From a virus (lineage: Duplodnaviria; Heunggongvirae; Uroviricota; Caudoviricetes): 6,265 nt of DNA. Below the pieces are notes generated by a model. The model had not been told where the DNA came from and did no database searches. It worked only from the letters and a program-made list of their open reading frames with translations. Below, in pieces: positions 3,024 through 6,265 of this stretch; the first letter of the stretch is position 1, and every line of letters starts with the position of its first letter. The position numbers and the translations under genes were made by a program. The DNA lies in the IMG/VR virus record IMGVR_UViG_2737471834_000004. One strand, written 5' to 3'.

Positions 3024-3042
3024 GTGCTTTCCCCGCCTCGCC
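3024..3042 (-). other. cos: cos site (19-nt P2/P4-type cohesive end)
   Basis: Plus strand gtgctttccccgcctcgcc is the reverse complement of GGCGAGGCGGGGAAAGCAC, which I recall as the P2/P4 cohesive-end sequence. It lies downstream of psu, as in P4. Confidence 0.75.
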
Positions 3043-3207: not shown

Positions 3208-3780
3208 TTACACAGACTGACGTGATGCCAGTTCTGCACTTTTACGCGAAAAAATCATGTTCTGCGCAGGGGTGAATTTTTCACGGCTGTCATCCACCGA
3301 AGCCGCGTCAGGCCTGAATCCGATGGTCGTTAAAATGTTGCTATCCTGTGCGGAATAATTAATTTTTTCCCCCTTCGCAAGCCAGGACAGAAGGGCTTCA
3401 CGCAGGGCATCTGTGGCACGCTGTATGGCACAGTTTCGGGCAATGGCCGTCAGCTCACTGTAGCCCATCAGCTCCGGTGCCAGTGCGGCCGCCAGTGCTG
3501 TGCCGTGCTGCTGCATAAAATCATTCAGCCGCTCGCGGATGCTGATGTGCTGAACGGCTTCATGCGAACGAACATAACGACCGGCGGCCTGATTCACCTG
3601 CCATTTTCTGACTTCGATAATATTGCGTAATTCGTCCAGGCGACTGACGTTTCTGCCTTCCCCGGACAGAAGCCGCAGATATTCCTGTTCGGCTGCCGCC
3701 AGTTCATTTTTGCGCTGAAGCCATGCCGCTTTGTTATTCTGGCAGACCTCAAAAGCCTGCTGTAATGACATTGTGGTCAC
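3208..3780 (-). CDS. psu: Psu (polarity suppression protein; Rho antagonist and capsid decoration protein)
   Basis: 190-aa ORF, the size I recall for P4 Psu, in the expected position after delta and before cos. The codon at 3780-3778 is GTG with AGGAGA about 7 nt upstream; an alternative ATG lies at 3771-3769. Identity asserted from memory, not searched. Confidence 0.85.
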   Translation of the reverse strand: MTTMSLQQAFEVCQNNKAAWLQRKNELAAAEQEYLRLLSGEGRNVSRLDELRNIIEVRKWQVNQAAGRYVRSHEAVQHISIRERLNDFMQQHGTALAAALAPELMGYSELTAIARNCAIQRATDALREALLSWLAKGEKINYSAQDSNILTTIGFRPDAASVDDSREKFTPAQNMIFSRKSAELASRQSV

Positions 3781-3794
3781 ACCCCGTCTCCTGA

Positions 3795-4040
3795 TTAATG
3801 GTTGAATGGTGAGCTGTAACAGCCTTTAACTTTTCGGACAACAGCCGGTGCTGTGCTTACCGGTGCTGGTTTTTCCTCCGTGACCGGAGAACGAATCACG
3901 GCACAAATTGACTCATGCGTTTTAAATGTCGCCGAACAGTAAATATTCTGGCACTGCAGATAACTTTCTTTGACATTGTCACTCACATACCGGCTGGTGC
4001 GGGTATGCGCTGAATGACGACAGAAAGGGCAGCGCATCAT
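3795..4040 (-). CDS. delta: Delta/Ogr-family zinc-finger late-gene activator, single-domain form
   Basis: 81 aa with C-x2-C...C-x4-C (CPFC ... CQNIYC) typical of the Ogr/Delta family. ATG at 4040-4038 overlaps the sid stop as ATGA (4037-4040). Located between sid and psu as in P4. Confidence 0.85.
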   Translation of the reverse strand: MMRCPFCRHSAHTRTSRYVSDNVKESYLQCQNIYCSATFKTHESICAVIRSPVTEEKPAPVSTAPAVVRKVKGCYSSPFNH

Positions 4041-4771
4041 GACAGCAGTCCTCTGGCCTTAAGCTCTGCTCCCTGCTGGTCTATTTTGTCCTGCCACACC
4101 TTGCGCTGTGCCGGTGTGCCTGCCACCTCATAATCCATGTGCGGGAGTGTTGCCGCTGACAGCCCGGTCAGCCGGAGAACCGGCTCGCCGCTGAGGCTGA
4201 TTTGTATCTGTTTAATTTTCTGTTCCAGCGATGATTTCACCTGCTGCATGACAGCCTTTTCCGGTGCGACGTAGCCCTGATGGCCGGTGGTGTTGGCGAG
4301 CGGATTTTCCTGTACCAGGATGCTCAGATGCATTGCCCGGACAAGCACCTCACAGGTTTCATTCAGGGCGTGTTCCAGCTCATGCTCTGCATACAGACTC
4401 AGAAGGTGATGATGTGCCTTCCGGTAGGCGGTGGCCGTGCTGTCACACGCCCCTTTCAGGCGTTCACGTTCGAAATTCAGCACCACGGCCAGATTGTCAT
4501 ATTCCTGTACCAGCTCCCGGCGTGCCACGCGCTCAATGTGGCGCTGTTTCAGCTCGTCGCTCAGGACACCACCGGCTGCACGAAAGGCCGTGCGCCAGTC
4601 GTCAGCGTCGTTTCCGTCGGCCTGCGTCAGCGCATTTTTTTCCTGCTCTGCCCGTTCAATGGCCGTGACGGTCTCATCCATCAGGCGGGCGTTCTCAAGA
4701 TGGGCGGCTCTGGACTTTTCCAGTTGTGCCAGTGCGGGTTGCAGATATTCAGGGATAGTGTGGTCAGACAT
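4037..4771 (-). CDS. sid: Sid (capsid size determination, external scaffold)
   Basis: Start placed at the ATG 4771-4769 (MSDHTIPEYLQ...), giving 244 aa, the size I recall for P4 Sid, with GAGGAG 8 nt upstream. The ORF-track start at 4837 is rejected because it lies upstream of the predicted Psid start site. First gene of the sid-delta-psu operon. Confidence 0.85.
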   Translation of the reverse strand: MSDHTIPEYLQPALAQLEKSRAAHLENARLMDETVTAIERAEQEKNALTQADGNDADDWRTAFRAAGGVLSDELKQRHIERVARRELVQEYDNLAVVLNFERERLKGACDSTATAYRKAHHHLLSLYAEHELEHALNETCEVLVRAMHLSILVQENPLANTTGHQGYVAPEKAVMQQVKSSLEQKIKQIQISLSGEPVLRLTGLSAATLPHMDYEVAGTPAQRKVWQDKIDQQGAELKARGLLS

Positions 4772-4861
4772 TTTCCGGCTCCTCGTCACTTCAGGTTGAG
4801 AAAATTGTGACGTACACCGGACAACAACACGACGCATTGCAGATGTGCCAGCCCTGACACA
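4772..4861 (-). promoter_or_regulatory. Psid late promoter with Delta/Ogr box
   Basis: TGT-N12-ACA dyad (tgtgccagccctgacaca) at 4844-4861. Placing its centre near -55, as for P2/P4 late promoters, puts the start site near 4797, downstream of the ATG at 4837 and upstream of the sid ATG at 4771. Confidence 0.55.
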
Positions 4862-4915
4862 GGAGACTCATCCTCAGACCGGCAAGCCAGGAAAAGGTCG
4901 CAGGAAAAACCGGCT

Positions 4916-5090
4916 TACTGTTTGTTTTTTTATATTTTACTGTTCACCTCTGTTCACCATAAGAAAAAAGATAAGTAATACAGTAAGTTAAAGGGTGAAC
5001 AATCGCAGTAATGACTGTTCACCGTCTGTTCACCACTGTTCACCCGTTGATGGGCTTTTTGTGCTGTTTATTACTGTTTGTTTTTATTAA
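4916..5090. repeat. crr-like iteron cluster (alpha-protein binding type I repeats, TGTTCACC)
   Basis: Direct copies of cTGTTCACC at 4940-4948, 4950-4958, 5015-5023, 5026-5034, 5036-5044 (10-11 bp phasing) and an inverted copy GGTGAACA at 4994-5001. Flanked by two copies of tactgtttgttttt(t)at at 4916-4933 and 5072-5087. TGTTCACC is the octamer I recall for P4 ori/crr. Confidence 0.65.
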
Positions 5091-5148
5091 TTCGTCGGGA
5101 ATGAATAAGAAAAAACGATTTGTATTTCACTATAAAAATTACGAATTG

Positions 5149-5178
5149 CTTTAAGTGGCTTTAAATGACTTTAAGTGG
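5149..5178 (+). promoter_or_regulatory. Three tandem 10-bp repeats upstream of PLL; candidate operator
   Basis: ctttaagtgg (5149-5158), ctttaaatga (5159-5168), ctttaagtgg (5169-5178), exactly contiguous and in helical phase, about 30 bp upstream of the PLL Delta box. Confidence 0.4.
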
Positions 5179-5203
5179 AGATGAACAAAAAACACACAAG
5201 CAT

Positions 5204-5275
5204 TGTAAGGCTGCCGGAACAAATCCCCCCTGTTGCGTCTGCTGAAAATATTCACAAAATAAAACGCTACCCGAA
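5204..5275 (+). promoter_or_regulatory. PLL (Delta-activated late-left promoter) with Delta/Ogr box
   Basis: TGT-N12-ACA (tgtaaggctgccggaaca) at 5204-5221. Predicted start site near 5268, about 55 nt upstream of the vis ATG and about 395 nt upstream of the candidate PLE start site, matching the ~400 nt PLL-PLE spacing reported for P4. Confidence 0.5.
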
Positions 5276-5323
5276 GCCGGACGGACTTATCCGGTGCTGT
5301 ATGGACATTAACGAGGTAGCCCG

Positions 5324-5590
5324 ATGCAAGCTGTTTTTTCTTCCCCGTCTCCTGCCCCTGTGACGCCACTGATGCCGCTGCCGGACATCACACAGGAGCG
5401 TTTTTTACGTCTGCCGGAAGTGATGCACCTGTGCGGCCTGTCACGCTCGACCATCTATGAACTCATCCGTAAGGGGGAATTTCCGCCGCAGGTGAGTCTT
5501 GGCGGTAAAAATGTGGCCTGGCTGCACTCTGAAGTCACCGCATGGATGGCCGGCCGCATTGCCGGACGCAAACGGGGGTATGACGCATGA
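5324..5590 (+). CDS. vis: Vis / AlpA-family helix-turn-helix regulator
   Basis: 88 aa with AlpA-like HTH core ([29 protein letters not shown] ... [12 protein letters not shown]). GAGG 7 nt upstream of the ATG at 5324. First ORF downstream of the PLL candidate, as for P4 vis; stop TGA overlaps the next ORF start as ATGA (5587-5590). Confidence 0.75.
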
Positions 5591-6177
5591 TGATGCCCGC
5601 TCTGCAAAAACTCCCTTTTTCTGGCTTGCCTTTTTCCGGCATTTGCGGATATAGTTTTTCCGTTGCCGCAAAATCGGCAGCCGGGCGTGAGAACCCGTGT
5701 AACTCGAAGGCGACATATGACGCGCCATGCGTCTTTTTTTGTGTCGCAATCAACGCCACAGAGCGCCAGATTATGGTGTGGCGTGTGGTTTGCCGTGCAG
5801 GTATGATCCTGTTCGCAATCGCATGTTATGCCACTGAGTCAATGGTAGCTCAGGCGGGGCAGCCTCCGGGCTGGCCGGTATTCTTCGAGGCCGGTATTCT
5901 CACCCCCGTCTGGGCTATCGCCATCGAGCGTGAGAACTCCGGCGATAGCAGTTATTTGCTACTCGAAGGAGGCTGCCTTATGGCTACAACCCTTACCCCC
6001 TCACACCCTGAATTTGTCTTTGTGTTTGCGGCTGTCCGTCGCGCAGACCGTCATCCCCGTATCTGCATGCTTCGCACCGTCGCCGGTGATGAACGCAGCG
6101 CCCGCCGTTCCCTTGTCCGTGACTATGTGCTCTCCCTTGCTGCCCGTCTGCCGGTGGTGGAGGTGTCCCGTGCGTAA
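5587..6177 (+). CDS. eta: Eta-like ORF (long nested ORF of the left operon)
   Basis: 196-codon ORF beginning with three consecutive ATGs (MMM) and overlapping the vis stop. P4 eta is described as 197-199 aa with three possible starts, beginning upstream of PLE and containing kil in frame. The amino-acid composition is unusual, so protein-level function is uncertain. Confidence 0.5.
5626..5655 (+). promoter_or_regulatory. Candidate PLE (constitutive early-left promoter) inside eta
   Basis: -35 TTGCCT (5626-5631), 18-nt spacer, -10 TATAGT (5650-5655). Located inside eta and upstream of kil, consistent with P4. Confidence 0.45.
5980..6177 (+). CDS. kil: Kil-like small protein (65 aa), nested in-frame in eta
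   Basis: ATG at 5980 preceded by AAGGAGG (5966-5972) with 7-nt spacing. The 65-aa product matches the reported size of P4 Kil. Ends with a double stop TAATAA (6175-6180). Confidence 0.6.
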
Positions 6178-6265
6178 TAAAAAAGCCCCTCAGACCGTCT
6201 CAGCACGTCATGACGCCCGTGAACACCTCAGCATTGAGGCTTACCATGCGTATTTTCATGAAAGG

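Follow-up and report, generated by a model that had tools for sequence, protein, structure and literature searches.

The eta/kil mechanism of phage P4 was published by Forti et al. in 1999 (J Bacteriol 181:5225), and the P4 system is also credited to Sabbattini et al. (1995). Here we analyse a stretch of 6,265 nucleotides (IMG/VR record IMGVR_UViG_2737471834_000004; hereafter the window), which carries the right-hand half of an E. coli prophage, a P4-like satellite, and within it an open reading frame (ORF) of 196 codons that is the P4 gene eta, with kil nested at its 3' end. In P4, according to the summary of Forti et al. (1999) given in PMC10111431, eta contains the promoter PLE, is coupled to the homologue of alpA/vis and has kil as its truncated product; the same summary states that translation of eta prevents termination, and it refers to eta nonsense mutants. 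The model in which the CI RNA acts on seqA and seqC is outlined in PMC4825925, where IsrK is called a structural homologue of the P4 SeqA RNA.

The principle of an antisense RNA that blocks translation of the first ORF and so permits termination is shared with the immI operon of P1/P7 (c4 antisense RNA, a/b target sites, icd and ant), whose RNAs belong to the same families as those of the window (Rfam C4 and c4-a1b1), and with the anti-immunity region of N15/PY54 (cA RNA, icd and antA), which is likewise of the same RNA family. In both cases an Icd-like small toxic protein is encoded downstream, where the window has its Icd-like Kil, and relatives of Kil lie beside C4-type RNAs in N15 and PY54. 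N15 (locus L093, 1264-1671) and PY54 (L094, 1269-1671) carry an isrK-like leader, a C4 RNA and icd in the order seen in the window, and the 5' edge of the C4 RNA is where the annotated 'repressor' ORF of N15 (gene 32, MVAQ...) begins, reading through the RNA in the frame used in P4. However, the open frame of N15 runs for 100 amino acids (aa) from the C4 5' edge and covers C4 and icd only, stopping short of the leader and promoter, and its length is explicable by chance; N15 also has no upstream gene coupled to the frame, and what follows is an antirepressor rather than replication genes. The eta device, a second promoter within a long coupled ORF, is absent from N15, the sole non-P4 locus examined for it, so that P4-like elements are the only ones with it in this comparison. 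The Salmonella system of Gifsy-1 IsrK, STnc1160 and anrP, in which an antirepressor-like toxic protein is under a small RNA with a dual function as messenger, is related through the leader, as that of the window (5662-5739) scores 67 bits on the isrK model; a nested eta-like ORF is undescribed there.

Compared with P4, the window has the same order, sid-PLL-vis-eta(PLE, seqA, cI, seqC, kil)-epsilon, and the two are alike in their Kil-equivalent product, in PLE, in the ATGA coupling to vis and in the triple ATG. The features of the locus, by position in the window, are as follows.

5324-5590, + strand: vis (orf88), AlpA-family regulator/excisionase of 88 aa (Pfam Phage_AlpA, E=7e-21)
5587-6177, + strand: eta, 196 codons (MMMPALQ...), spanning PLE, the seqA leader, the CI RNA, seqC and kil
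5587-5595, + strand: triple ATG start ATGATGATG, its first ATG in an ATGA overlap with the vis stop
5626-5655, + strand: PLE, TTGCCT-18-TATAGT, inside eta; the putative constitutive immunity promoter by likeness to P4
5649-5701, + strand: c4-a1b1 match (Rfam 49.5 bits; gathering threshold 46.7)
5662-5739, + strand: PLE leader RNA, SeqA/IsrK-like (Rfam isrK, 67 bits; gathering threshold 50), with two 5' hairpins by fold
5703-5710, + strand: seqA target core CTCGAAGG, covarying with seqB
5719-5733, + strand: terminator-like hairpin closing the leader, followed by a T7 run to 5740 (terminator scan)
5740-5837, + strand: spacer between leader and CI, the most variable of the stretches with no recognised element
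5838-5925, + strand: CI immunity RNA, C4 antisense RNA family (Rfam RF01695, 74.3 bits; gathering threshold 45; E=1e-13; model positions 1-87 of 87)
5879-5889, + strand: seqB loop TATTCTTCGAG, with CTTCGAG at 5883-5889
5962-5970, + strand: seqC target CTCGAAGGA, overlapping the kil Shine-Dalgarno sequence AAGGAGG (5966-5972)
5980-6177, + strand: kil, 65 codons in frame within the 3' end of eta, Icd-like cell-division inhibitor
5980-6057, + strand: C-rich, G-poor stretch (37% C, 19% G; peak of a composition scan), candidate Rho loading site for timm
6170-6265, + strand: start of epsilon, GTG at 6170, with an 8-nucleotide (nt) overlap with the eta/kil stop

An initial annotation of this DNA had described a 196-codon ORF that begins with three consecutive ATGs, overlaps vis through an ATGA and reproduces the kil/eta logic of P4. 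The ORF is indeed present at 5587-6177 and the vis TGA (5588-5590) overlaps its first ATG (5587), while the P4 logic is borne out by homology to P4 and by the published model as summarised in PMC10111431. Bases 5100-6247 are 94.6% identical to P4 DNA over 1148 nt, and the vis product differs from that of P4 orf88, which is annotated as an excisionase and transcriptional regulator, at one residue. Eta aligns end to end with a 199-aa frame of P4 that starts MMMPALQ, with 88% aa identity, the window having a 9-nt deletion in the spacer. As in P4, eta shares its frame and stop with kil and starts where vis ends, ahead of PLE. In the window an in-frame TGA (5581-5583) lies two codons before the ATGs and shuts the frame, and therefore an earlier start of eta is impossible here, whereas in P4 the frame is open for 18 codons further. 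An identical 196-aa ORF is found in E. coli LD39-1 (RefSeq WP_021570267.1, named 'Icd-like protein'), and of 5426 complete E. coli genomes, 1004 gave a match to the eta/kil locus. The identity of the long ORF is thus that of P4 eta, and the eta/kil pair, already described, is nothing new to biology.

For the comparisons that follow, we collected 80 IMG/VR loci, five loci from other genera that were among the matches listed in a scan with Kil, and P4, which together gave 68 distinct sequences that were aligned by codon. The triple ATG ATGATGATG occurs in 63 of these 68 relatives, so it is not universal; the A/GTGA overlap with vis occurs in all 68. By analogy with P4, this overlap would couple translation of eta to that of vis, and eta would be translated only from transcripts that start upstream, at PLL.

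What the initial annotation missed is that the part of eta upstream of kil (the eta-only part) holds a complete RNA immunity cassette, consisting of the seqA leader, the CI RNA and a seqC that overlaps the kil ribosome site. Rfam gives three matches here, all on the + strand and all above the gathering score. The CI RNA folds with -48 kcal/mol (z=-5.35 against shuffles), and the terminator-like hairpin that closes the leader is conserved among relatives, with a compensatory G/C swap. The CI loop CTTCGAG (5883-5889) is complementary both to seqA CTCGAAGG and to seqC CTCGAAGGA, so that, as in P4, a CI RNA gene is found with a complementary seqA upstream and a complementary seqC downstream, all inside eta. 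Among the 68 relatives seqA, seqB and seqC covary three ways, forming at least seven types (examples are loci L001, L028, L043, L079, L084 and L003, of which L001 is P4). The type of the window, CTCGAAGG with CTTCGAG, differs from that of P4, TTCACAGG with CCTGTGAA, by matched, compensatory substitutions in seqA, seqB and seqC, which suggests that the CI RNA of the window would have an immunity specificity different from that of P4. Two relatives, L044 and L075, look recombinant, with a seqA that does not match, and L034 has a degenerate set. For the window, the cognate seqB-seqC duplex has a predicted energy of -20.8 kcal/mol, as against -12.3 to -17.7 kcal/mol with non-cognate targets, and the cognate duplex is the most stable in six of the seven seqB types tested, that of the window included. 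With the flanking stem bases counted in, duplex energies set cognate apart from non-cognate pairs for seqB-seqC, but not cleanly for seqB-seqA. The covariation table is better evidence for the seqA/seqB/seqC pairing than the duplex energies are.

The promoter-like element TTGCCT-18-TATAGT noted inside the ORF is present, but its description as strong is not borne out, since it matches the consensus at 9 of 12 positions. A promoter scan of 4700-6265 found it to be the only site of its kind, with 1.0 expected in shuffles, and the match taken by itself is therefore at chance level. The support for PLE comes instead from its identity to P4 and its conservation: from the -35 through the -10 it is base for base the same as in P4, its -10 matches the position of the 'consensus -10' feature annotated in X02534, and all 68 distinct relatives have a -35 of TTGC[CTA]T and a -10 of TA[TC]AGT at a spacing of 18 nt. 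On the strength of this likeness the copy in the window is a putative active promoter.

The 65-aa in-frame ORF proposed to start at 5980 is likewise present, running for 65 codons to the stop of the long ORF, and its product is identical, at 65 of 65 residues, to that of the corresponding P4 ORF, so the alignment with P4 Kil that the initial annotation had called for shows complete similarity. The P4 records carry this 65-aa ORF without a kil annotation, and the name Kil comes from Forti et al. (1999) as summarised in PMC10111431. The protein matches the Icd-like family NCBIfam NF033153 over model positions 1-48 of 48 (76.1 bits, cut-off 25, E=1.6e-21), and this membership, together with identity to the P4 protein, makes it a presumptive toxin. 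The 'perfect' AAGGAGG site of kil does exist at 5966-5972, 7 nt ahead of the ATG at 5980; however, seqC overlaps it, and therefore the motif is in part an antisense target of the CI RNA rather than a ribosome site alone. The full AAGGAGG is present in only 9 of the 68 relatives, while the GGAG core is present in 68 of 68.

We also compared how the two parts of eta evolve. Entropy at codon positions 1, 2 and 3 is 0.10, 0.08 and 0.35 in kil and flat in every eta-only segment, with 0.48, 0.45 and 0.50 in the spacer 5740-5837. The pooled ratio of non-synonymous to synonymous substitution rates (dN/dS) over the 68 relatives is 0.18 for kil, 0.80 for the eta-only part and 0.76 for the element-free spacer. 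Despite this, the frame is kept. It is open in 81 of 83 related loci, the other two (L085 and L088, both among the 80 IMG/VR copies) being frameshifted with kil intact, either as decayed prophages or through sequencing errors. The alignment contains no stop in frame 1, as opposed to 17 polymorphic stop positions in frame 2 and 15 in frame 3; given at least 359 substitution events, and with 3.6% of the possible substitutions creating a stop, about 13 stops are expected in the eta frame and none is seen. An open frame of 131 codons arises in 0.7% of shuffles of the eta-only composition. Indels in the spacer are of 3, 9, 12, 27 or 33 nt only, all multiples of three, and near seqC a one-base indel is always matched by its opposite, in -1/+1 pairs that restore the frame. 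The window itself differs from P4 (L001) by such a pair, a +1 indel with a -1 indel some 27 nt away (at roughly 5950-5977). The two flank seqC, rewrite 9 residues within an 11-letter segment (SVICYSQEAAI in one of the two forms) and leave 7 nt between the Shine-Dalgarno sequence and the ATG where P4 has 8; about 30 of the 68 relatives show the same pairing. In AlphaFold2 models the predicted local distance difference test (pLDDT) is about 33, below 50, over Eta residues 1-140, and 63-76 for Kil.

The layout extends beyond E. coli. ORFs with the layout of eta are found in loci of Kosakonia, Enterobacter and Kluyvera, with identities of about 55%; Klebsiella, Serratia and Yersinia have proteins whose length and domains match. 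In Phytobacter (L005, 1919-2143) and Mixta (L007, 1909-2157) vis is followed by an additional, inserted ORF of 74-82 aa; the eta-like ORF is shorter, begins 10-14 nt past the stop of the inserted ORF and has no overlap with vis.

Taken with the P4 literature, these data give a consistent picture of how the locus may work. We stress that what is observed in the window and its relatives is homology and anatomy, membership of RNA families, covariation and signatures of evolution. That the promoter is active, that termination depends on Rho, that Kil is toxic and what eta nonsense mutations do are taken from the literature on P4, so that this copy would behave like P4 by analogy. Very probably the locus is the immunity and early-operon switch of a P4-like satellite prophage, working as in P4. 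In the immune state, PLE (5626-5655), inside eta, would yield an untranslated leader, from whose transcript the CI RNA (5838-5925) would be cut. The seqB loop of CI (5879-5889) would pair with seqA (5703-5710) and seqC (5962-5970) on nascent transcripts, and since seqC overlaps the kil ribosome site, pairing would mask that site and kil would not be translated. With the C-rich start of kil left as naked RNA, Rho-dependent termination could then take place at timm, for which 5980-6057 is a candidate site from the P4 literature, and the replication genes from epsilon onward would stay off, epsilon being the first gene whose transcription would depend on readthrough. When PLL fires, in contrast, the transcript would carry vis; ribosomes that reach the vis TGA (5588-5590) would start again at ATG 5587, which overlaps it, and go on to translate eta across the leader, CI, seqC and kil. 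Ribosomes on eta would block RNA folding, CI pairing and Rho loading, and transcription would therefore read through in any immunity state. The 131 eta-specific codons would in this way serve as a ribosome track rather than as a selected protein, while the last 65 codons would encode a real protein, the Icd-like Kil.

The upkeep of a frame in the absence of selection on its amino acids is consistent with suppression of timm by translation of kil or of eta. The suggestion that Eta may matter more for being translated than for its function is therefore supported, by a dN/dS of 0.80 as against 0.18, by flat codon positions and by the maintained frame. Its odd composition, also remarked on in the initial annotation, is real and has a simple explanation, as the eta-only codons overlie PLE, the seqA leader, the CI RNA and seqC, which are functional RNA or DNA elements. 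We favour, with some reserve, a reading in three parts: the eta-only codons are purely a ribosome track, whose frame, coupling and length have been selected across P4-like satellites of Enterobacterales and whose amino acid sequence has not; the Pfam family PF10554 is the in-frame translation of a promoter, leader and C4-RNA cassette; and the window represents one of at least seven CI/seqA/seqC specificities.

Several points weigh against the working of the locus proposed above. The patterns used to find related loci were derived from proteins and favour intact ORFs; even so, the two frameshifted copies were recovered, and eta is intact in all four of the most diverged E. coli copies from a DNA search. 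A dN/dS near 1 in the eta-only part could in part reflect RNA constraint on all codon positions, which would mask weak selection on the protein, and the AlphaFold2 alignment is shallow, at 31 sequences. For this copy, transcription, translation and termination are predicted from sequence, and finer points, the placing of timm among them, come from a secondary summary.

Of the alternatives, the one that survives best, though we regard it as unlikely, is that the long ORF is kept mainly for an N-terminally extended isoform of Kil made in the lytic or plasmid phase, whose unstructured extension would tune toxicity, stability or localisation, anti-termination being secondary. The C-terminal 65 residues, common to Eta and Kil, evolve under purifying selection, and a disordered extension would likewise give a dN/dS near 1 and a low pLDDT; but the sequence offers no support for a role of the extension, the P4 literature as summarised in PMC10111431 credits readthrough to the translation of eta itself, and the conserved coupling to vis is explained no better than by the ribosome track. 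The isoform is compatible with the ribosome track and does not exclude it.

Slightly less probable again is that Eta is a genuine two-domain protein, in which an N-terminal 'Ash' domain with a biochemical function of its own is joined to the Icd/Kil domain, the ORF being conserved for its protein. Pfam Phage_ASH (PF10554) matches Eta residues 22-143 well above its gathering threshold (77.6 bits against 26, E=1e-21), Eta also matches PHROG families of transcriptional repressors or regulators, and Ash+Icd proteins of 174-199 aa occur across Enterobacterales. The PF10554 match, however, corresponds to nt 5650-6015, that is, to PLE, the seqA leader, the variable spacer, the CI RNA, seqC and the first Kil codons; several of the PHROG matches likewise fall on PLE, the SeqA leader, the CI RNA and seqC. 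The three conserved peptide blocks of the Ash region coincide with RNA hairpins, of which they are the translation. The region lacks third-position bias, its dN/dS is the near-neutral value given above even in the spacer that is free of elements, compensated frameshifts rewrite 6-9 Eta residues without penalty, and the pLDDT of residues 1-140 is low. In Klebsiella-type relatives Kil itself is down to about 45% identity whereas the peptide encoded by CI has hardly changed, as RNA constraint would lead one to expect. Conservation in the PF10554 region thus follows the RNA elements, with no sign among these relatives of a protein domain under selection at the amino acid level, and what PF10554 'Ash' describes is probably an RNA cassette rather than a domain of a protein.

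That kil is instead the only gene, its upstream 131 codons an untranslated leader open by chance and the long ORF a gene-caller artefact, is very improbable, because, although the deposited P4 records lack eta and have only an obsolete 137-aa 'cI/ash' ORF in this frame, and although the Prokaryotic Genome Annotation Pipeline (PGAP) is inconsistent at locus L089 ('ash family pseudogene' plus a separate Icd-like coding sequence), a frame so rarely open in shuffles is open in nearly all related loci, three other genera at about 55% identity included and two more with a shorter version, with zero stops where about 13 are expected, indels that are all preserving or compensated, a conserved overlap of the eta start with the vis stop, and the P4 eta nonsense-mutant data summarised in PMC10111431.

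Outside the locus, the window contains the following features.

118-2790, - strand: cargo gene, 890 aa, at the variable cargo position beyond cos
3024-3042, - strand: exact 19-base match, located between psu and the cargo gene, to GGCGAGGCGGGGAAAGCAC, which we take to be the P2/P4 cos cohesive end
3208-3780, - strand: psu
3795-4040, - strand: delta
4037-4771, - strand: sid

The similarity to P4 stops at about 6247, and the C-terminal part of epsilon is unlike that of P4; in the P4 annotation, epsilon begins 8 nt ahead of the end of the old 'cI' ORF. The delta product of the window has 81 aa and one Ogr/Delta zinc-finger domain, whereas P4 delta has 166 aa, and E. coli LD39-1, whose eta locus is otherwise identical to that of the window, has delta in the 166-aa form; the element is therefore mosaic. 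The 890-aa cargo protein combines an N-terminal PHP-like motif with an ABC/SMC-type ATPase and matches the NCBIfam TrlF-family ATPase model over its full length (572 bits, cut-off 350). Its likeness to the anti-phage protein Ppl is weak (NCBIfam 109 bits against a cut-off of 1000; PADLOC Ppl E=5e-25, over the C-terminal 120 residues). It is likely to be a defence cargo of the P4 hotspot, with no recognised system of which it is a member. A tRNA scan of the window found none.

Database labels for the eta ORF are inconsistent, being 'Icd-like', 'ash family', 'transcriptional repressor' and, once, a pseudogene. In E. coli HCP8S3_I1 (L089, 356-955), PGAP gives an 'ash family protein' pseudogene and a separate 65-aa Icd-like coding sequence. 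We considered whether E. coli copies labelled in this way are broken forms of eta; for L089, the one copy examined, this is ruled out by an intact ORF of 184 codons.

The eta/kil device and its part in immunity-insensitive readthrough were established for P4 in 1999, and the practical value of the present analysis lies in annotation. The labels in use conceal a promoter and three RNA elements inside the eta ORF, and the analysis draws attention to a Pfam family whose model is probably that of an RNA gene. With its frame kept and its sequence not, eta is a clean natural example of an ORF selected for being translated.

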